From assembly GCA_038065055.1 (NCBI GenBank), contig JBBTRT010000001.1, positions 48,893-112,892 on the forward strand: a stretch of DNA of 64,000 bases. The letters run 5' to 3'. The position numbers were made by a program, and so were the translations under genes. The notes under the pieces were generated by a model. The model saw only the letters and a list, made by a program, of their open reading frames with translations, had not been told where the DNA came from and did no database searches. Origin of the DNA: Patescibacteria group bacterium (GTDB taxonomy: Bacteria; Patescibacteriota; Microgenomatia; UBA1400; CG1-02-47-37). Below are positions 1,141-52,409 of the stretch, one piece after another (the stretch's first letter is position 1; each line of letters begins with the position of its first letter).

Positions 1141-2103
1141 ATGCTTAAACTCACTCCTCAAGAACTCACCGCCGCCCGGAACGTAATGAAACAATGTATG
1201 GGTATTAAACCCGGCGAGTCGGTTTTAATCGTCACCGACCCTGCAAGGTCCAACCTTGCAGGCATTTTTGCCGCCGCTGCTAAAGCCATAACTAAAAAAG
1301 TTGAGCTTGTTTCATTTAATACTATGACCGGCAACGCCCAAGAACCGCCGCCTCTAGCCGCTCAGAAAATGAAAACTGCTGACGTGGCTCTTTTAGTTAC
1401 TACCTATTCCCTCTCCCACACTAAAGCCCGCAAAAACGCCAGTCAAAATGGCTGCCGGATCGCTTCCATGCCGGGCATTACTTTGGCCATGGCCAAAAGA
1501 ACCCTAACGGCTGATTTTACTCAAATGGCAGCCTTATCTACTAAATTAGCTGAAATATTATCTCAGGCTAACTCTGCCCGGCTGACTTCTGCCGCCGGCA
1601 CTGATTTAACTTTTACCTTAACCGGACGCCTAGGCGACGCCGACACTGGCCTTTACACCACCCCAGGACTTTGGGGCAATCTCCCGGCCGGCGAAGCTTG
1701 CATCGGCCCCTTAGAAAATAAAACACAAGGCACTTTAATCATTGATGGCGCTATGGCCGAAATTAATTTAGATCAGCCGATAAAAATTATAATAAAAGAC
1801 GGTCTGGCAATTGATATTTCCGGCGGCCAAGCTGCCAAACGCTTAACCGCAACTCTCAGGCAAGCCGGACCTCAAGCATTTCAGGTAGCCGAGCTGGGTA
1901 TCGGCACTAATCCGCTGGCCCAACTCTCACCCAATATCTTGGAGGCCGAAAAAGTCTATGCCACCTGCCATGTTGCTTTTGGCAATAATCTTTCCTATGG
2001 CGGGATTATTGACGTCCCAGTCCATGAAGATGGCGTAATCCTTCAGCCAACGCTCCAAATTGATGGTAAAATAATCCTTAAAGCCGGAAAATTTTTACTA
2101 TGA
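1141..2103 (+). CDS. aminopeptidase, M29 (AmpS/aminopeptidase T)-like
   Basis: 320 aa. The C-terminal block ELGIGTNP..EAEKV..CHVAFGNN..VHEDGV..IDGKIILKAGKF resembles the M29 metal-binding region as I remember it. Confidence 0.55.
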   Translation: MLKLTPQELTAARNVMKQCMGIKPGESVLIVTDPARSNLAGIFAAAAKAITKKVELVSFNTMTGNAQEPPPLAAQKMKTADVALLVTTYSLSHTKARKNASQNGCRIASMPGITLAMAKRTLTADFTQMAALSTKLAEILSQANSARLTSAAGTDLTFTLTGRLGDADTGLYTTPGLWGNLPAGEACIGPLENKTQGTLIIDGAMAEINLDQPIKIIIKDGLAIDISGGQAAKRLTATLRQAGPQAFQVAELGIGTNPLAQLSPNILEAEKVYATCHVAFGNNLSYGGIIDVPVHEDGVILQPTLQIDGKIILKAGKFLL

Positions 2104-4190: not shown

Positions 4191-4508
4191 ATGAAAGCCA
4201 AAATTCACCCTCAATACTACGCCGATTGCCAAGTTTCCTGCGCTTGCGGCAATACTTTTACCACCGGATCAACCCTACCGGCCATTAAAATCGATATTTG
4301 TTCGCAGTGCCACCCCTTCTTTACCGGCAAAATGAAATTCATCGATGCCATGGGCCGCGTTGAAAAATTCTCCCAGCAGTTTAAAGCCGCCCAAGCCAAA
4401 AAATTTGTGAAAAAATCCGACCGCAAAAAGAAAAAAGACCAGAACGATAATAAAACCCCGCTGACTCTTAAAGAAATGTTTGATCAGGAAAAAAAGAAAT
4501 CAAAATGA
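4191..4508 (+). CDS. rpmE: 50S ribosomal protein L31 (Zn-ribbon type, Lys-rich C-terminal tail)
   Basis: Starts [10 protein letters not shown]. CxC...CxxC motif and HPFFTG. 105 aa. Confidence 0.85.
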
Positions 4509-5401
4509 CCGATTACCTCCAGCAGGAAATCGACCGGTTAAACCAAAAAATAAATGAGGCCCAAGAAGCCTTAACCGACCCACAATTAAAATCCTTAGCC
4601 GAAGAAGAAATTGCCAGCCTAAAACAAGCGCTCCAAGCTTTAGTTGAATCTCAAAATTCTTCCCCTGCGTTACCACTCCGGAGTGGTAACGAACCTCAGG
4701 GAAATGTTATTTTGGAAATCCGGCCTGGCACCGGCGGCGAAGAAGCTAAGCTCTGGGCCGAAGATTTGGAAAATATGTACGTCCGCTTTGCCAACTTGCA
4801 AAAACTAACTGTCGTTAAAATTGATTCCGGCGTGATAAAAATCAAAAGCAAAACCGCTTATGCTTTATTTAAACATGAAGCCGGCGTCCATCGCGTCCAA
4901 CGCGTGCCCACCACCGAAGCCCAGGGCCGGATTCACACTTCCACTGCCACGGTTGCCGTTCTACCGGATGTCAAAGAAACCGATATTAACGTTAACCCTA
5001 AAGATCTGGAAATTGCTTTCTTCCATGCTTCCTCTCATGGCGGTCAAAATGTCCAAAAAGTCTCCACCGCCGTCCGCATCACTCATAAACCTACCGGCCT
5101 TATCACCAGCTGCCAAACCCAGCGCTTTCAGGACCAAAACCGCAAAATCGCCATCGACATGCTCCGGTCAAAGCTCTTTCAAATTGAACAGGAAAAAAAC
5201 TTAGCCGAAACCGGCGCCGCCCGCCAATTAGCCGGCCATGGTTCCCGGGCCGAAAAAATCCGCACTTATAATTTTCCGCAAAACCGCGTTACCGACCACC
5301 GTTTAGGAAAATCCTGGAAAAGCCTGGACCGGATTATGGCCGGCGATCTTTTACCACTGCTTACGGCTCTCCAAGTTCTGCCAAAGTTACCGTTAAATTA
5401 A
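4505..5401 (+). CDS. prfA: peptide chain release factor 1 (short form)
   Basis: GGQ motif ([13 protein letters not shown]). RF1-type anticodon-like region [25 protein letters not shown]. 298 aa. ATGA overlap with rpmE. Confidence 0.85.
4668..4691. repeat. 24-bp perfect palindrome inside the prfA CDS
   Basis: CGTTACCACTCC|GGAGTGGTAACG is a perfect inverted repeat centred on TCCGGA. It is translated as ..ALPLRSGNE.. in a variable linker. Confidence 0.9.
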
Positions 5402-6762: not shown

Positions 6763-7989
6763 CTATTGTAATACTATTTCCAGGGCTTTTTCCAGTTGCA
6801 AATCTTCCTCCGGCTTTTCCGGATCGTTTTTCACTTCTTCGTCCGGCGCAATCCCTTTGGTCTCATTTACCCATTGGCCTAAGGGTAAAAGCCATTTTGC
6901 CGTCGTGACATGTAAACCCGCTCCTTCGCCCAGATCCAGTGCCTCCTGAATCGTCCCTTTGCCAAAGGTCTTTTCCCCCACTAATTTGGCCCGCTTATAA
7001 TCTCTTAACACCCCGGCTAAAATCTCTGAAGAAGACGCGCTTCCCTGGTTCACCAGCACCACCAACGGCTCTTTAAGCAGCTTACCGTTAAAATCCACGC
7101 TATAACTTTCCACTTTGTCCTGGCTATTTTTCTGCTGGACCACGACTTTGCCCCGGGGCAAAAACTCGCCTGCGTACCGCACCGCCCCTTGCAAATATCC
7201 GCCCGGATTATTCCTCAAATCCAAAATAACTCCTTTGGCTTTTTGGCTGTTTATCTCTTTCACCGCTTCTTCCCATTCAGTTTCCGTCCGGCCGCCGAAC
7301 CGGGTTAATTTAAGTAATGCTACTTTTTTATCTTCCCCCACCCAGGATAACTCCACGCTTTTTACTACAATCGTATCTCTGGCCATCATGACCTCTTTTG
7401 TTTCACTATCGCCACTGCGTAAAATCGTTAACGTCACTTCAGTCCCTTTGGGGCCGCGGATCAGCTCGACTGCTTCCGGCAAAGTTATCTCGCCGGTATC
7501 TCTGTCAACCCCTTTTTTCTCATCTTTAATCTTCAAGATAAAATCCCCGGCTTTTACCCCGGCCGCTTCTGCCGGTGTCCCGACCAAAGGCGCTATTACC
7601 GCCAGCTGGTTATCCTTAAAACCGAGTTGAATTCCGACTCCTTCAAACGCTCCGTTTAGCTCTTCCTGGGTCGCCTTATTCTGCACCGGCGGCAAAAACA
7701 CCGTGTAAGGGTCGCCCAAAGCCGCCGTCATGCCTTTAATTGCCCCCCAAGTCATCTCCTGAGTTTTTAAATTATCTTTAATTAAATAAGCTTCGTGCAA
7801 TTTATCCCAAACCTGCCAATACAAACCCATATCCACAGAATTTTTATTGCTCGGAACGTATACCTTAAAACTGTTTCTCCTGCCTAAGTTCCAGCCTATT
7901 CCGCCGGAAATTATCATCAAGGCCACCACAATAATCCCGAATCTGACTTGTTTTAAGGACAATTTTACCATTTTCCACTTAGGCCACAA
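6763..7989 (-). CDS. carboxy-terminal processing (S41, Ctp/Prc) protease
   Basis: N-terminal TM segment, PDZ-like region, and S41 motifs LVNQGSASSSEILAG and GEKTFGKG. Confidence 0.8.
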   Translation of the reverse strand: MWPKWKMVKLSLKQVRFGIIVVALMIISGGIGWNLGRRNSFKVYVPSNKNSVDMGLYWQVWDKLHEAYLIKDNLKTQEMTWGAIKGMTAALGDPYTVFLPPVQNKATQEELNGAFEGVGIQLGFKDNQLAVIAPLVGTPAEAAGVKAGDFILKIKDEKKGVDRDTGEITLPEAVELIRGPKGTEVTLTILRSGDSETKEVMMARDTIVVKSVELSWVGEDKKVALLKLTRFGGRTETEWEEAVKEINSQKAKGVILDLRNNPGGYLQGAVRYAGEFLPRGKVVVQQKNSQDKVESYSVDFNGKLLKEPLVVLVNQGSASSSEILAGVLRDYKRAKLVGEKTFGKGTIQEALDLGEGAGLHVTTAKWLLPLGQWVNETKGIAPDEEVKNDPEKPEEDLQLEKALEIVLQ

Positions 7990-38848: not shown

Positions 38849-41173
38849 TTAAATCCCAAAATACCAAAAACCTTTTTCTTTTAACATTTTCGGCAACTTA
38901 AACAAATCCCCTTTAAGAACAACTATCAACACCTGATTTTGCTCTGCTAAAAATTCCTGCAACTCTTGACTGACAAGCCCTCTCACCCCATCTTTATCGC
39001 TGGAAACAATAAGTAAAGATCTTCCCGTATCAATATTTTCTAGATTCGAATCCTTCAGTAATTTTGGAAAATAGCTGTCATCGATTAAACCAATCATGGA
39101 AAAAATCGTTCCGTCAGTATCCCTGATTAACATTGGTATAACCTTCAAATTTAATTTTTGCTTGCCATCAGCATCAATGACCGCTAAGTTGGCATACCCT
39201 GCCTTAAGAGCGATATGATTATTAGCGCCAGACTCGCCATCCGAAATTGTTATTACTTTCCTGCCTTCAAATGTATCATTACTTGCTCGCCAAGCAATTG
39301 GAATTTCAAGTTCGATTTTTTCCCCATCATAATATACTTCATCAAATTCACCCGCCGCGGTTTCTGCCGTCGCCAAAGCCACATACCTATGAATCGTATC
39401 AATCATGGCTTGCTGTACTTCCGGACTTGCCCCTTCGTCCACCACAAAATTAGCCAGGCCCGCTTCCCACTCCGCTATTTGCTCAGGCGTCGAATCCGGG
39501 CTCGGCGCCCCAGACCCAAAAATTGTCGCCTCACCATCTATAAATTGCCACCCTCCGGCGGTAAGCACTCCATCCTTATTCGTCACCGCCAGGTTGGAAA
39601 CCGTAAACACTTCCGCGCCAATGGTCAGTTCCGCCCGCCCGCCCGCAAAAATTTTCAAATTATCAACCCCCGGAATAGTAAAATGGTCTCCATCCTGAAT
39701 TAATCGATATTCATCCCCCAGTGTTTTCTGCAATTCAGAAATTGGCCCCTCCGGCAACGGGGCGCTAATCTTCTCCATGGCAAAAAATACTTTAAACCCT
39801 GCCTCGTCTAAAACAATTTGAAAATCCTGTTCTTCTCCTGTCGTCGGCGATATAAAATGCATACTTTTTCCATCGACATCAAATACCATAACCATTTTTG
39901 TTAAAGCAATTCCCTGATCCGGAGCGATCGGCGTTACTCCGCTCGCCTGCAAAGCCCAGACAATTTCATTTCCCATAGGCGCTCCATAAATTACCTGCCA
40001 TTCACCATTAACTCTTATCCGTGCCTCAGTTAATCCATCAGTTCCCCTATAAAATAAAACTTTTTCTTCACCTAAATCAAACCCAACCGTATCATTCTTA
40101 TCAACGCCATCACACTCACTGCCGCATTTAGTCCAATAATCTTGGATATCGGTCTCTAAAATCACCGGCGCTTCCGGAAAAATACCTAACGCCAATCTAG
40201 CCTCAGCCGCCAATTCCACTCCGCCAGGCAAGTTGGCTAACTGACCCGCATCTACCACGCTAGAGGTACCGTCGCTAAAATGAACCGTTAAAGTCATCGT
40301 TCCATCCGCATTTTTTTGCGCCGCCAATTTGGCTGCTTCCGCCACCAAATTTCCATCCAAAACACTAAACTCCTGTATTGATGTCTCCATCAACCCGTTT
40401 GATCCAGCCGCTTTCCAGCCATCCAAGCTTATTTGCGCTCCAACCATTTTATACAACTGATAATCCGATTTCCCGTCTTTATCAAGATCAACTGACTCCA
40501 CCGGAATTGCCAGCATTGGCGTTGCCTTTGCATCTTTAGCCGCCTGCCACTCCAAACCGACCAACTCACCGTTCTTTTCTGTCATCCGTAAATCCGGCAT
40601 TGCCGCGCCATTAACATCAAAACAGGCCACCGCTGCACCCATTACTACTTGGTCTGCCCCTGACGGCGCCGCCAAATCCACTGAATGAATTAACGCTTCC
40701 TTTTGTAATGTCGCACACAAACTTAAAGCATCACTCTGCCCGCCACCATCAGGATCTTTAACAGAATTATAAGCCCCCACACAAGCGGTTATCACTAATG
40801 CTAAACCGCTCCAATAAACTATCGACCGGCCATTAAAACCTTGCAAATTAAAATGCCTATCTCCAACTTCATCCTTCGGAAAAGGATCAAAAGCTAAATC
40901 TAAGGCTCGTCCGGTCTCCTGCCAAAACTGTTGCGGATTTTCTTTTATGGCCTCTCTAACAATTCTTACCGGCTCAGCTGTATCATGCCACCAGTTTTCC
41001 AGATGAGTTCTGGAAATTCGGGCATATTCTGCCGCTGATAAAATCAGGATCTTTCCCAAAGGTTTAGCTTCCTTTCCTTTTTCCGCCTTAAAATCAGCAG
41101 AATGAACGTCTAATTCTCCCTCCTTAAAACCGTCTGGTCCACCTGAAAAAGTCATTATTGGTGCAAGTGTCAT
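38849..41173 (-). CDS. large membrane-anchored protein, unknown function
   Basis: 774 aa. A ~120-aa N-terminal cytoplasmic part, one TM helix (IVYWSGLALVITACVGAY), then a large Ala/Gly/Asp-rich ectodomain. Confidence 0.45.
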   Translation of the reverse strand: MTLAPIMTFSGGPDGFKEGELDVHSADFKAEKGKEAKPLGKILILSAAEYARISRTHLENWWHDTAEPVRIVREAIKENPQQFWQETGRALDLAFDPFPKDEVGDRHFNLQGFNGRSIVYWSGLALVITACVGAYNSVKDPDGGGQSDALSLCATLQKEALIHSVDLAAPSGADQVVMGAAVACFDVNGAAMPDLRMTEKNGELVGLEWQAAKDAKATPMLAIPVESVDLDKDGKSDYQLYKMVGAQISLDGWKAAGSNGLMETSIQEFSVLDGNLVAEAAKLAAQKNADGTMTLTVHFSDGTSSVVDAGQLANLPGGVELAAEARLALGIFPEAPVILETDIQDYWTKCGSECDGVDKNDTVGFDLGEEKVLFYRGTDGLTEARIRVNGEWQVIYGAPMGNEIVWALQASGVTPIAPDQGIALTKMVMVFDVDGKSMHFISPTTGEEQDFQIVLDEAGFKVFFAMEKISAPLPEGPISELQKTLGDEYRLIQDGDHFTIPGVDNLKIFAGGRAELTIGAEVFTVSNLAVTNKDGVLTAGGWQFIDGEATIFGSGAPSPDSTPEQIAEWEAGLANFVVDEGASPEVQQAMIDTIHRYVALATAETAAGEFDEVYYDGEKIELEIPIAWRASNDTFEGRKVITISDGESGANNHIALKAGYANLAVIDADGKQKLNLKVIPMLIRDTDGTIFSMIGLIDDSYFPKLLKDSNLENIDTGRSLLIVSSDKDGVRGLVSQELQEFLAEQNQVLIVVLKGDLFKLPKMLKEKGFWYFGI

Positions 41174-41291
41174 ACTCTAGGACAGAATATACCCTATAGT
41201 ATAACTAACTCCTGATAATTTCTATGCGTAACTTATACATATTCATTATAGGCCGCGAATTATATTTTATCAATACCTCGTTGCTTATTGC

Positions 41292-41320
41292 AAGCCTTCC
41301 GGGAGACTCCCGGAAGGCTT
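41292..41320. repeat. REP hairpin copy 1 (29-bp perfect palindrome)
   Basis: AAGCCTTCCGGGAGACTCCCGGAAGGCTT, 34 nt upstream of the RAYT ATG. Confidence 0.9.
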
Positions 41321-41353
41321 TAACCCTACTCAAAAAGTGATAATATAAAAGTA

Positions 41354-42040
41354 ATGCCCGCTAAACACAGTATCAAAGAATACGAAGCTGGAGCTTATTA
41401 CCACCTTTACAATCGAGGTGTTGAAAAAAGGATTGTTTTCCAAGACGATGCCGATTATAAAACTTTCCTCGGCTTTCTCCGCCTCTACCTCACAGCTCCC
41501 CACCTTCCGGGAGACTCCCGGAAGGTTGCCCGCCCCATATCAAAACCCTTAAATAATTTCCAAGGTAATATCATTCTCCTTGCCTATTGCTTAATGCCTA
41601 ACCACTTTCATCTGCTAGTTAAACAAAACCAAGAAGATGGTATTAACCATTTCATGCGTTCGCTCATGGCCCAATATGTTCGTTACTTTAACACTAAATA
41701 CCAACGCATCGGTAGTTTATTCCAAGGGCCTTATAAAGCTGTAAAAGTCGAAAGCGAAGAACAATTTGTATATCTGTCAAAATATATTCACCGCAACCCA
41801 CTCAATCTCCCCGCCTTCCGGGAGTCTCCCGGAAGGTTAAATAATCTTGAAAACTACAAATTTTCCTCTTACGGCAACTACCTAAACCTTTTTCAACAAT
41901 CATGGGTTTCATGCTCTGATATTCTCTCTTATTTTTCCACTAAAAATCCTCAAACAACCTACAAAACTTTCATTAAAGAATCAACTGATAAAGATATATT
42001 AACCATCGCTCCGCTGACCATTGATATTGAATTTGATTAA
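41354..42040 (+). CDS. REP-associated tyrosine transposase (IS200/Y1 family)
   Basis: YHLYNRG, HUH motif PNHFHLLV, and catalytic Tyr region YLSKYIHRNP. 228 aa. Confidence 0.75.
   Translation: MPAKHSIKEYEAGAYYHLYNRGVEKRIVFQDDADYKTFLGFLRLYLTAPHLPGDSRKVARPISKPLNNFQGNIILLAYCLMPNHFHLLVKQNQEDGINHFMRSLMAQYVRYFNTKYQRIGSLFQGPYKAVKVESEEQFVYLSKYIHRNPLNLPAFRESPGRLNNLENYKFSSYGNYLNLFQQSWVSCSDILSYFSTKNPQTTYKTFIKESTDKDILTIAPLTIDIEFD
41503..41525. repeat. REP hairpin copy 2 (inside the RAYT CDS, in frame)
   Basis: CCTTCCGGGAGACTCCCGGAAGG, translated as ..HLPGDSRKV.. Confidence 0.9.
41814..41836. repeat. REP hairpin copy 3 (inside the RAYT CDS, in frame, loop base flipped)
   Basis: CCTTCCGGGAGTCTCCCGGAAGG, translated as ..PAFRESPGRL.. 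Confidence 0.9.
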
Positions 42041-42047
42041 CCTTCCG

Positions 42048-42070
42048 CCTTCCGGGAGACTCCCGGAAGG
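42048..42070. repeat. REP hairpin copy 4 (8 nt after the RAYT stop)
   Basis: CCTTCCGGGAGACTCCCGGAAGG, preceded by the partial duplicate CCTTCCG. Confidence 0.9.
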
Positions 42071-42073
42071 TAC

Positions 42074-43102
42074 TTACCCTCTTAGCCGGGCAATGTCTTT
42101 AATCGTGATCAACACCATTAACCCGATTAACGCCAGCATTCCTGCCAGATGTATCCGCTGTTCCCATTCCGGCTTTAACTTCTTGCCGGTAATTATTTCC
42201 CCCAGCACAAAAAATAATCGCCCCCCGTCTAAGGCCGGCAAAGGCAATAAGTTTAAAATCGCCAGATTAATCGACAAAATCGCCATAAACTGCAACACGG
42301 CAATAAAACCCTCCTTAGCCACATTTTTGGAAATCTCGTAAATTCCCACCGGCCCGGTCACATCCTTCGGCACTTGACCTTGTCCTAATCCCACTGCCAT
42401 TTTAACTAAACCGGTCACAATCTCTTTGCCCCACAACCAGGCCTCTTTTACCCCGGTCACCATTCCCCGGAACGGCCGCTGCCACAGCGGATACTGCACC
42501 AAATCCACATCAGTTATCCCCACCCCTAGCGCCCCTTGGCCGGCCGGTGTTTCTTCTGCTAATCTTGGCGTCAACTTTACTTCCCGGCCATCCCCCAACT
42601 GCAACGCTACTTCCTGTCCCCGATTCTCATTTACCCACTCAATAAACGCCTGCGTCTCCTTGAAATTTAAAATTTTATCATCTGGCTTCAAACCGGCCGT
42701 TTGCGCCGGCGAGCCATCCGTTACGCTGGTAACTTTCAAGTAATCGACTTTTTCCGGAATCCCGATCTTGGTATAAATTCCGGCAAACAATAAAATTCCC
42801 AGCAAAAAATTCATACTCACCCCTGCCAACAAAACCGCTATTTTTACCGGCTTTTTTTGGCTCGCAAACGAGCCGTGGCCCTCGGGTAAATCCTCTCCCA
42901 GCATCCGCACAAACCCACCGAACGGCAACAAATTAAGACTATACTCTGTTTCCTGTTTCTTAAATCCTAATATTTTTGGCGGATAGCCAAACCCAAATTC
43001 TTCCACTTTAATCTTAAACCACCGCGCCACCACAAAATGCCCCAGTTCATGGATCAGGATCAAAACCGACAAAATAATGAAAAAAGTTAAAAGTGGCGGC
43101 AT
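42074..43102 (-). CDS. rseP: RIP metalloprotease RseP (M50 site-2 protease)
   Basis: HELGHF at the N-terminus, a PDZ-like middle region and the LNLLPLPALDGG motif. Confidence 0.85.
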   Translation of the reverse strand: MPPLLTFFIILSVLILIHELGHFVVARWFKIKVEEFGFGYPPKILGFKKQETEYSLNLLPFGGFVRMLGEDLPEGHGSFASQKKPVKIAVLLAGVSMNFLLGILLFAGIYTKIGIPEKVDYLKVTSVTDGSPAQTAGLKPDDKILNFKETQAFIEWVNENRGQEVALQLGDGREVKLTPRLAEETPAGQGALGVGITDVDLVQYPLWQRPFRGMVTGVKEAWLWGKEIVTGLVKMAVGLGQGQVPKDVTGPVGIYEISKNVAKEGFIAVLQFMAILSINLAILNLLPLPALDGGRLFFVLGEIITGKKLKPEWEQRIHLAGMLALIGLMVLITIKDIARLRG

Positions 43103-44820: not shown

Positions 44821-45558
44821 TTAGCTAGTATACCGGCTGTTGGCTAAATTTTCAAGCAGACAGACAACCGTCACCGGCCCGACGCCTCCGGGAACCGGCG
44901 TAATCGCCCCCGCCACATTTTTCACCACTGCAAAATCCACATCGCCTTTCGGCCAACCCACATCAATCACTGTGGCCCCGGGTTTCACCATTTCCGCAGT
45001 AATTAATTTTTCTCTACCAGTACAACTTATCAAAATATCTGCTTCTCTGGTTTTATTTTTTAAATCTTTATCTCTTGAACTAAGCTCTAATCCCTTTAAT
45101 CTAACCGCTAATTTCCTTCCTACCATCCCTCTCCCCACAACCACTATTTTTTCAGTACCGTTCCGGAACGGTACTGTTTTCAAAATTACCTCAACTGCCC
45201 GCACTGTTGCCTGAATAAAAGGCGAATTCTCTCTAAGTCCATCAACGTCTTTACTTGGCACAATTGTTTCAACCAGCTGAGCCCACTGCTTTTCAAACTC
45301 TTTTCCCCTATACCCAGGCCTCTGAATCATGACTCCCTGGATCAACTCATCTTGATTCCACTCGGTCAATTTCCCCGTATCGCTGCTGGTAATCACCTCT
45401 ATCCCCAAACGCTTGCCTGCCTCTTGTTTTAACCGGCTGTAAACCTGGCCCGCTTGGTCATCTTTAAACACTAAAATTGCCAATTTTGTCCCCGGTTTTA
45501 CCTTTGGCTTTAACTGCGCTTCTTTTTCCCTGGCCAATTTCTCCCCGTCAATAATCAT
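44821..45558 (-). CDS. folD: methylenetetrahydrofolate dehydrogenase/cyclohydrolase (short form)
   Basis: DVDGL, VVVGRGMVGRKLA, ITPVPGGVGPVTVVCLLEN. 245 aa. Contains a 24-bp palindrome. Confidence 0.75.
   Translation of the reverse strand: MIIDGEKLAREKEAQLKPKVKPGTKLAILVFKDDQAGQVYSRLKQEAGKRLGIEVITSSDTGKLTEWNQDELIQGVMIQRPGYRGKEFEKQWAQLVETIVPSKDVDGLRENSPFIQATVRAVEVILKTVPFRNGTEKIVVVGRGMVGRKLAVRLKGLELSSRDKDLKNKTREADILISCTGREKLITAEMVKPGATVIDVGWPKGDVDFAVVKNVAGAITPVPGGVGPVTVVCLLENLANSRYTS
45153..45176. repeat. 24-bp perfect palindrome inside the folD CDS
   Basis: CAGTACCGTTCC|GGAACGGTACTG, translated as ..KTVPFRNGTEK.. Confidence 0.9.
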
Positions 45559-51359: not shown

Positions 51360-52409
51360 TTACCTGTCAAGCAGTACAAGGCTATGCGGCTTAGATTCCG
51401 CCAGCCCCGCCGGAGAAATCCTGATAAATTTCGCTTTTTGCCTCAGCTCCTGTAAATTCTTCGCCCCCAAATACGCCATCCCTGACCGCAAACCCCCCAT
51501 TAGTTGGAAAATCACCTCTTCTAATTTCCCTTTATATTCCACTAATCCTTCCACCCCTTCCGCTACCAATTTCTTGGCGGTTTTCTCCTGGCCGTATCGC
51601 TCCGCGCTGCCAAACTTCATTGCCCCAACTGACCCCATCCCCCGGTAAGTTTTATATTTCTTGCCCCTGATCGCCACAATTTTTCCCGGCGCTTCGTCAG
51701 TTCCGGCCAAAAGCGACCCCAGCATCACGCAATCTGCCCCGGCCGCCAAGGCTTTAACAATATCCCCGCTGGTTTTAATCCCCCCATCGGCAATAATCAT
51801 TTTATTTTTAAATTCTTTCCCTGCCCGCACCCCCTCCATGACCGCGGTTAACTGCGGCACGCCCATGCCGGACATAATCCTGGTGGTACAGATCGACCCC
51901 GGTCCCATCCCGACTTTCACCGCGCTAGCCCCGGCTTTAAATAACGCCTTCGCCCCCTCGTAAGTGGCCGTATTGCCGGCAATTATCTCTATCACCGGGT
52001 AATTTGCCTTAATCCATTTAATCGCTTCAATGACGTGTTTGGTGTGACCGTGGGCGCTATCAAGGCAAATTTCCTCAGCCCCGATTTTAACTAACGCCTT
52101 CACCCGCTCGCTAAAATCCGCTCCCACGCCGACTGCCGCTCCGGCTTTAATCCCTTTTTTCAAAACATATTTTAACTGCCCGGCTTGCTTGCCGATGCTT
52201 AAGTTCCGGTGAATTATTCCATACCCGCCTAACTTACCCAGCGCTACGGCCATCTCTTTTTCGCACACCGTATCCATCGGCGAGGCCGCCACCGGAAGCT
52301 TCAACTTAATCTTCTCTGTTAACTTGCCTACGAGGTCCGTCCTCGTAGGCGTTACCTCAGAATACTGGGGCAATAATAAAACGTCATCGTAAGTTAAATA
52401 AGTTTTCAT
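51360..52409 (-). CDS. IMP dehydrogenase/GMP reductase family protein lacking the CBS subdomain
   Basis: Catalytic loop GMGPGSICTTR, IADGGI, GSLLAGT. 349 aa. Confidence 0.8.
   Translation of the reverse strand: MKTYLTYDDVLLLPQYSEVTPTRTDLVGKLTEKIKLKLPVAASPMDTVCEKEMAVALGKLGGYGIIHRNLSIGKQAGQLKYVLKKGIKAGAAVGVGADFSERVKALVKIGAEEICLDSAHGHTKHVIEAIKWIKANYPVIEIIAGNTATYEGAKALFKAGASAVKVGMGPGSICTTRIMSGMGVPQLTAVMEGVRAGKEFKNKMIIADGGIKTSGDIVKALAAGADCVMLGSLLAGTDEAPGKIVAIRGKKYKTYRGMGSVGAMKFGSAERYGQEKTAKKLVAEGVEGLVEYKGKLEEVIFQLMGGLRSGMAYLGAKNLQELRQKAKFIRISPAGLAESKPHSLVLLDR

Follow-up and report, generated by a model that had tools for sequence, protein, structure and literature searches.

In a 64,000-nucleotide (nt) stretch of a Patescibacteria genome (assembly GCA_038065055.1, contig JBBTRT010000001.1, positions 48,893–112,892; below called the window), a gene for a Y1 HUH transposase of the kind known as REP-associated tyrosine transposase (RAYT; REP, repetitive extragenic palindrome) carries four copies of one short hairpin, two flanking the gene and two lying in frame within it. 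We consider it probable that this is a REPtron-like unit, in which a RAYT-kind gene, present once in the window, is combined with two flanking hairpins and two hairpins in linkers tolerated by the protein, and in which the copies are homogenised. By analogy with characterised members of this enzyme class, the hairpins would be of the kind that the enzyme recognises on single-stranded DNA (ssDNA).

The hairpin is a 23-nt palindrome, CCTTCCGGGAG-N-CTCCCGGAAGG. A search of the window with CCTTCCGGGAGNCTCCCGGAAGG gave exactly four matches without mismatches, at 41295–41317, 41503–41525, 41814–41836 and 42048–42070, which we call U (upstream), S1 and S2 (internal) and D (downstream). The chance expectation from 100 dinucleotide shuffles was 0. 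This exact-match search confirmed the copies, coordinates and translations given in the original prediction, a reading of this DNA made from its letters alone. No further copies of CCTTCCGGGAGNCTCCCGGAAGG were found in the window with up to three mismatches allowed. The earlier statement that the hairpin occurs nowhere else in the window thus holds for the exact sequence, but two palindromes of the same architecture are present at 1240–1262 and 52326–52350. The stems of the hairpins are GC-rich and 10–14 bp long, and their predicted ssDNA folding energies range from -11.8 to -15.7 kcal/mol (z from -3.8 to -7.6). U lengthens to a perfect palindrome of 29 nt, as had been noticed before, and S2 has T instead of A as its centre base. 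The distances to the gene had each been put one base too high (34 and 8 nt): from the 29-nt palindrome to the ATG there are 33 nt, and CCTTCCG (7 nt) fills the space between the stop codon and D. On their 5' sides the four copies have GCAAG, CCCCA, CCCCG and TTCCG, respectively. S1 and S2 have a spacing of 311 nt and are translated in two different reading frames of the palindrome.

That the protein is a RAYT-kind transposase with Y1 HUH chemistry motifs is well supported. It matches the Pfam family PF01797 (Y1_Tnp; E 9.3e-10, 39.1 bits with a cutoff of 23), and a weak match to the NCBIfam model NF047646 (REP_Tyr_transpos; 39.5 bits with a curated cutoff of 80) covers residues 71–150 only. No helix-turn-helix (HTH) domain was detected by Pfam in the 228-amino-acid (aa) protein. 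The HUH motif reads NHFH (N83–H86, codons at 41600–41611) and is followed by FQ (F123–Q124), by YIHRNP (Y144–P149) with the catalytic Tyr144 (codon at 41783–41785), and by SSY in the C-terminal tail. An AlphaFold2 model based on an alignment of 112 sequences (mean predicted local distance difference test score (pLDDT) 86.4; predicted template modelling score 0.85) was compared with the PDB using Foldseek. The top match was 4er8_A (E 2.6e-5, TM (target) 0.64), in which the E. coli RAYT is in complex with a REP hairpin; next came the TnpA proteins of ISDra2, IS608 and IS200.

The protein has 7611 detectable homologues. The best 120 of these are from Patescibacteria wherever the source is named (Collierbacteria, Microgenomates group) and are 213–277 aa long, mostly 218–232 aa. 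The extra length of the family resides mainly in the conserved C-terminal tail bearing the SSY motif. Judged against these sequences, 228 aa is the family norm, which spans 213–235 aa, and no insertions are needed as an explanation, so that the earlier argument that the length fits two insertions does not stand. N83, H84, F85, H86 and Y144 do not vary in an alignment of 28 sequences or in one of 112, and all family-invariant residues are present in the window protein. Because these residues are kept, the gene is intact and not a decayed pseudogene, a state that the original prediction had named as one that would speak against it.

We then compared 160 homologous loci (33–68% identity), 80 from species-representative genomes and 80 from metagenomes, which together with the window make 161 loci. 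Each locus was scanned for GC-rich hairpins, and two hairpins were counted as matching when they agreed in at least 80% of a 19-nt core. Most lineages have a palindrome of their own 11–51 nt before the start codon and 0–10 nt after the stop codon, and matching upstream and downstream hairpins were found in 66 of the 161 loci. The view that the window gene is flanked by cognate hairpins, with the same palindrome on both sides, is borne out. In ∼30% of the loci the lineage's flank palindrome is also found in frame at S1, S2 or both (31 loci for S1 and 31 for S2), and flank-matching hairpins elsewhere in the transposase gene numbered only three. All four positions are occupied in 13 loci, the window among them; other examples are L002 (CCTACAAGGAGACTCCTTGTAGG), L088 (CCTGCAGGGCCAGGCCCTGCAGG), L108 (TGACAGGGTCTCGCCCTGTCA) and L061 (TATGGAGGTTGAACCTCGATA). 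The hairpin states are patchy on the protein tree, with internal copies in several distant clades. Two four-hairpin loci, L042 and L096, have a truncated open reading frame (ORF) in which the frame is lost near S2, the products covering query residues 1–128 and 1–182, respectively. Some copies of the unit are thus decaying.

Homologues with 55–70% identity have L-x-G-x-S-x-K and F-x-E-S-P-x-R-L at the two internal sites, and this conservation could suggest that the matches inside the gene merely follow from protein motifs under conservation, or else that they are due to chance. The variable residues at these sites, however, co-vary as complementary codons (P/R, Q/L, R/S), and distant homologues differ there in both sequence and length. 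Above all, the palindrome of each lineage equals its own non-coding flanks: 62 of the 74 hairpins at S1 or S2 (84%) match the flank of their own locus, compared with 2.3% for randomly paired loci. The matching within and between loci refutes the idea that conserved protein motifs gave rise to the palindromes, and we give this explanation as a whole practically no weight. The original prediction would have counted it as refuted if homologues lacking any REP sequence had the same residues at these positions. The residues are indeed shared, but in the homologues, too, this DNA forms palindromes, which agree with the hairpins flanking the respective gene, so this does not speak against the hairpins. 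The shared residues L-x-G-x-S-x-K and F-x-E-S-P-x-R-L are therefore translated palindromes.

All lineages retain an apical core, [AG]GG-N5-CC[TC], and differ in the lower stem. Loop and apical determinants are known to matter for perfect-palindrome REPs (PMC8266576), and the conserved core is what would be expected for a hairpin tip recognised by a protein. In an alignment of the hairpins, 91% of the cells were paired and 154 double changes were counted; these figures are descriptive only, as the sequences had been preselected as hairpins.

The segments encoded by S1 and S2 coincide with the only two internal low-confidence blocks of the model, residues 51–60 (pLDDT 51) and 151–160 (pLDDT 59), both of which are largely coil. 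The S1 site is the linker from the helix at 32–46 to the strand at 73–81, upstream of the HUH strand, and the S2 site directly follows the helix of the catalytic Tyr and the YIHRNP motif. Both linkers are strongly variable in sequence and length across the family, and distant homologues are unrelated there; at the S2 site, distant relatives have a segment P-I-x-S-x-L-V-K. The encoded peptides are therefore modelled as short flexible loops tolerated by the fold, in agreement with the earlier proposal that the internal copies sit in permissive loops. The same proposal had these copies arrive as insertions, and here the data point elsewhere. Linkers with hairpins are no longer than those without (site 1 median 37 vs 37 residues), and some relatives have decayed relics of equal length, e.g., FQDNTLK where sisters have LQGESSQ. 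For these reasons the copies seem to have been renewed or exchanged where they stand, and simple insertion does not account for them.

Evidence that the copies change together comes from pairs of related loci. Between the window and L081 (68% protein identity), one arm base and its partner are changed in nearly every copy; the upstream copy of L081 deviates. The cleaner case is that of L087 and L094, syntenic orthologues with 82% nt identity over 4 kb. They have CCTGCGAGGTCCGACCTCGCAGG and CCGTCAGGGACGGACCCTGACGG, respectively, at the upstream, S2 and downstream positions, with identical positions and lengths, and the change spans all three detectable copies. Independent mutation cannot yield this pattern. 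Either one copy must template the others, or all copies must track the specificity of the enzyme under strong selection. Within one locus the copies thus remain alike, and it is from lineage to lineage that their sequence drifts.

Changes at the hairpins can also be seen between strains. Locus L161, from a metagenome of the Hainich groundwater wells, encodes a protein (P0001) that is 98% identical to that of the window, on a contig collinear with it. From 41176 to ∼44630 (∼3.4 kb) the two differ by 23 events, 17 of which fall within ∼30 nt of S2 or D. The centre base of S2 is A in L161 and T in the window, which changes Ser to Thr. The orientation flip noted in the original prediction is thus a real state, of which a near-identical relative has the opposite. 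Three substitutions lie within the 8 nt after S2, and 11 substitutions in the 28 nt immediately 3' of D alter the C-terminus of the convergent Peptidase_M50 protein. The CCTTCCG duplication is missing in L161, where D abuts the stop codon, and since it is absent from such a close relative it is a recent, strain-specific change. Some of these differences may share one tract, which would make fewer independent events, and the clustering is still strong.

The high identity begins abruptly. The 3.4 kb downstream of 41176 are ∼99% identical between the window and L161. In the 774-aa ORF divergently upstream of the transposase gene (38849–41173, minus strand), compared with L161 1–900, roughly a third to a half of the aligned positions differ and there are many indels. 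The sharp change at 41176 points to a recombination boundary or to a hypervariable, possibly surface, protein.

How the copies are kept alike is inferred. For the REPtron-like unit we propose that one hairpin would repeatedly be copied onto, or overwrite, another. The most plausible agent would be the enzyme itself, whose cleave-and-rejoin chemistry would be directed preferentially in cis at its own gene while this is single-stranded during transcription or replication. Hairpins would then be copied or overwritten at those few sites whose encoded peptide the protein can bear. The internal copies would stem from self-targeting and be tolerated as its by-product, not required as features of the protein. 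RecA-type conversion between the repeats seems less likely, because a homology of 23 nt is too short to be a good RecA substrate.

Several points weigh against this proposal. Binding, cleavage and strand transfer are assumed by analogy with the RAYTs of E. coli, Stenotrophomonas and Marinomonas and with IS608. The bare 23-nt unit is not insertable in frame, and the gene does not gain length with hairpins, so that simple insertion fails to explain the origin of the internal copies. The differences between the strains near D could come from a single recombination tract. The hairpins also deviate from those of REPtrons in two features that define REPs. The 5' GT[AG]G is missing, with neither GTAG nor GTGG at either foot of the four copies, and the hairpin is almost confined to the gene instead of being dispersed in hundreds of copies. 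There are 0 other copies in the 64 kb and 8 copies in 430 kb outside the gene in the flanks of relatives (0.019 per kb), and a REP-dispersing role is hence not evident from a count that, for the window, covers ∼6% of a genome assumed to be ∼1 Mb. Related, non-identical palindromes do occur in the window at low density. Finally, the strict limitation to two internal sites and their persistence over 30–70% protein identity would fit a selected function equally well.

Such a function could be autoregulatory, with the internal hairpins as cis sites (as ssDNA or cruciform) to which the transposase would bind on its own gene, thereby curbing its expression, or the hairpins could be joints for a programmed rearrangement or an exchange of three segments of the gene (N-terminal, catalytic core and tail). 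The two fixed sites bracket the catalytic core across very divergent lineages, and the internal copies are kept identical to the flanks. A TGaTAATAT box (extended -10) read by eye 10 nt before the ATG would, if it is a promoter, place U at the -35 position, and the same layout of box and upstream hairpin is found in L002, L083, L087 and L094; a scan for sigma-70 consensus promoters, however, detected none on the plus strand. As to exchange of segments, L131 and L135 have protein identities of 91% (N-terminal), 86% (core) and 42% (tail), and their nt identity falls exactly at S2. This drop may be mosaicism, but a single pair judged from per-segment identities, with a fast-evolving tail, is not enough to establish it, and recombination between S1 and S2 would shift the frame at their spacing. 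About two thirds of the family members, moreover, are without one or both internal copies and still have intact genes, and internal copies decay in place, as in the LQGESSQ and FQDNTLK pair above. We regard a functional four-hairpin architecture as possible, though unlikely.

A role of the hairpins in the mRNA, as attenuators, stabilisers or sites of translation pausing, would have some appeal. The stems are rich enough in GC to fold in RNA as well, and D lies between two convergent genes, where REPs often serve as 3' elements (PMC3733652). In imperfect copies, however, summed over all four positions, 35 G.T mismatches (wobble pairs in the sense RNA) stand against 37 A.C mismatches, so that no bias towards G.T exists. 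The centre base flips between lineages and between strains, which means that strand identity is not kept. No terminator-like T run follows any copy in the window, the hairpins gave no match in Rfam, and U probably precedes the transcription start. What is constrained is therefore the palindromy of the DNA and not the sense RNA, a pattern that suits substrates of an enzyme acting on ssDNA hairpins (PMC8266576). Regulation by RNA structure, which had been offered earlier as an alternative, is on these grounds very unlikely.

Among the closest known systems are the REPtrons formed by RAYT (TnpA-REP) genes and their hairpins, as in E. coli (4ER8). The accounts of these systems describe the same Y1 HUH fold with HUH and Y-x-x-x-N-P motifs (PMC6006769, PMC8266576), and YIHRNP at residues 144–149 agrees with the class 2 tyrosine motif Y-x-x-x-N-P as listed in Table 1 of PMC6006769. 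Here too a gene, found once in the window, is bracketed by cognate GC-rich hairpins, and hairpin sequence and protein lineage co-vary. Apart from the two deviations given above, the protein differs from those of REPtrons in scoring below the cutoff of the NCBIfam RAYT model and in its length of 228 aa with a long SSY tail, and the host belongs to the candidate phyla radiation, a group not covered in the published surveys consulted.

The original prediction called REPs within a RAYT coding sequence unusual, which overstates the case. In-frame REPs inside the cognate tnpA-REP gene are a kind of feature that is already known, and they are described as a 'unique feature of subclass 2.4' by Quentin, Siguier, Chandler and Fichant (2018; PMC6006769). 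According to the parts of that survey that treat this subclass (Bertels group 4; Cyanobacteria, Bacteroidetes), its cognate REPs lie within the gene with the frame kept, at the periphery of the protein and remote from its catalytic and DNA-binding surfaces, as in the window. Relative to the description given there, S1 (residues 50–58) precedes H84 and S2 (154–161) follows Y144, so that both are outside the HuH-Y interval, unlike in subclass 2.4. Of its motifs NH[IFV]H, WQ and YIxNNP, only the first fits the window protein (NHFH), whereas FQ and YIHRNP do not. The long or double-foot GTAG REPs reported for the subclass are not present in the window unit, and neither concerted in-place replacement nor a constant four-position architecture is described for it in those parts of the survey. 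The closest motif pattern in Table 1 of the same work is that of TnpA-Y1 subclass 2.1 (TIRYT-like; NH[YF]H, FQ, Y[IV]HLNP, SS tail, median 238 aa), a placement made by motifs and length and not by the authors' models. Unlike the window gene, which is flanked by hairpins, subclass 2.1 is reported there as being without nearby REP-like sequences and often has a DnaA_C-like HTH tail (PMC6006769).

The unit could also be an autonomous IS200-like insertion sequence with U and D as its ends, the internal copies being incidental. The TnpA proteins of IS200, IS608 and ISDra2 have the same fold, their coding sequences are likewise bordered by hairpins recognised on ssDNA, and some IS200-group ends are perfect palindromes (PMC8266576). 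The neighbouring genes of the window were found in none of the 160 homologous loci, a result that is uninformative at such distances. In the pair L108 and L126, nt identity (81%) is confined to the stretch between -36 and +56 relative to the gene, i.e., from hairpin to hairpin, and the flanks are different. On the other side, NHFH and Y-x-x-x-N-P are class 2 motifs and not those of IS200 class 1 (DH[VI]H, Y-x-x-x-Q), according to Table 1 of PMC6006769. There is no tnpB, the window holds one copy of the transposase gene, and most homologue clusters are on one contig. The same perfect palindrome stands at both ends in place of distinct left and right ends, and syntenic orthologues with 75–82% nt identity (L087/L094 and L025/L029) indicate vertical descent. 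An autonomous insertion sequence is therefore a doubtful description of the unit. Occasional movement of the whole unit is nevertheless likely, because family-wide synteny is missing and the homology of L108 and L126 runs from hairpin to hairpin.

Short palindromes translated in frame within functional genes, presumably as loops, are known as well from Rickettsia palindromic elements and from intragenic REPs, which Di Nocera et al. (2013) report in many genes (PMC3733652). The Rickettsia-type elements are described as insertions that add 20–80 residues, whereas the palindromes of the window replace sequence at equal length. Taken together, 'REPtron-like' is the best label for the unit, which we file neither as a canonical RAYT/REP system nor as an IS200-type insertion sequence. 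New are the lineage, which spans the Patescibacteria, the two fixed sites outside the HuH-Y interval and the constant four-position architecture, as well as hairpins of low copy number without the GTAG tag, and direct evidence that the hairpins are replaced in parallel and in place and that they differ between strains. Our literature search for a closer precedent, for candidate-phyla-radiation cases and for later reports found none.

Palindromes of similar build are found elsewhere in the window (Table 1). With an [AG]GG-N5-CC[TC] apex and at least five further stem pairs, there are 6 in the window, U, S1, S2 and D included, compared with 0.13 expected. One of the other two lies in an M29-like ORF whose only relative in the PDB is 2,5-dihydroxypyridine dioxygenase. 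The second lies in the IMPDH gene, in a part that aligns without gaps to solved IMPDH structures and adds no length. Two classes of patescibacterial IMPDH, equal in length at this place, can be told apart, one without the palindrome (TPSKTDT..) and one with it (TP[ST]RTDL[VE]G). Homologues with 76–77% identity (loci L162, L163, L164 and L165 were compared) have a palindrome at the same place, and three palindromic members keep it by compensatory changes (ACG/CGT to TCA/TGA and AGG/CCT to AGA/TCT). One IMPDH subgroup has a 9-aa deletion immediately 3' of the palindrome. In the Beckwithbacteria-like locus L162, which has the gene order from IMPDH through FolD, rpsB, tsf and frr to RseP in common with the window, two palindromes of the same class, ACCTGCAAGGATAATCCTTGAAGGT (6790–6814) and CCTGCAAGGTTTCTCCTTGTAGG (7403–7425), bracket a staphylococcal-nuclease-like (PF00565) gene.

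Two other palindromes, each 24 nt long and perfect, are centred on TCCGGA and lie in frame in two housekeeping genes, RF1-like and FolD-like, where the peptides that they encode resemble each other. Loop-free 12-bp palindromes are expected by chance ∼0.004 times in 64 kb (an estimate), and, going by their sequence, these two may represent a second family of intragenic palindromes.

These observations are a hint of something more general, by which palindromes would be written into the coding DNA of these genomes or kept up there. Beyond inserting hairpins, a HUH enzyme in domesticated form, or hairpin-templated repair coupled to it, might repeatedly overwrite ∼23-nt tracts, coding DNA included, with the currently active palindrome while leaving the length unchanged. 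This would explain the parallel replacement, the two 'writable' linkers and the equal-length palindromes in the IMPDH, FolD-like, RF1-like and M29-like genes. We put it forward as a speculation that is improbable as it stands. Such a process, if real, would amount to a system in nature, linked to an enzyme, by which coding sequence is rewritten in short patches.

Table 1. Hairpins, genes and other palindromes of the window (positions count from its first nucleotide).
Feature	Position	Strand	Remarks
Palindrome CCTGCAAGGTCCAACCTTGCAGG	1240–1262		[AG]GG-N5-CC[TC] class; in frame as DPARSNLAG; in M29-like ORF 1141–2103 (+)
Palindrome CGTTACCACTCCGGAGTGGTAACG	4668–4691		24 nt, perfect, TCCGGA centre; in frame as LPLRSGNE; in RF1-like gene 4505–5401 (+)
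Upstream flanking hairpin U	41292–41320		Perfect palindrome of 29 nt, AAGCCTTCCGGGAG-A-CTCCCGGAAGGCTT; ssDNA folding energy -15.7 kcal/mol
Y1 HUH tyrosine transposase gene	41354–42040	+	RAYT-like; TnpA-Y1 class 2; 228 aa
Internal hairpin S1	41503–41525		In frame; encodes HLPGDSRKV (residues 50–58)
Internal hairpin S2	41814–41836		In frame; encodes AFRESPGR (residues 154–161); centre T
CCTTCCG direct duplication	42041–42047		Repeats the first 7 bases of the downstream hairpin
Downstream flanking hairpin D	42048–42070		Between the transposase stop and the stop of the convergent gene
Peptidase_M50 (RseP-like) gene	42074–43102	-	Convergent
Palindrome CAGTACCGTTCCGGAACGGTACTG	45153–45176		24 nt, perfect, TCCGGA centre; in frame as VPFRNGTE; in FolD-like gene 44821–45558 (-)
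Palindrome GCCTACGAGGTCCGTCCTCGTAGGC	52326–52350		25 nt, perfect; [AG]GG-N5-CC[TC] class; encodes PTRTDLVG; in IMPDH gene 51360–52409 (-)

RAYTs are the best-known domesticated bacterial transposases. The lineage described here may be a compact natural test case for the way in which they copy and maintain REPs: all substrates lie within 780 bp, at four fixed positions, change in step from genome to genome and have recent differences between two near-identical strains; the step of copying or replacement is directly testable with oligonucleotides and one 228-aa protein. For annotation, the conserved LxGxSxK and FxESPxRL of this family should be taken as translated hairpins and not as functional protein motifs. 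REP-type elements, including those in coding sequence, are thereby extended to the Patescibacteria, which the surveys consulted do not cover.

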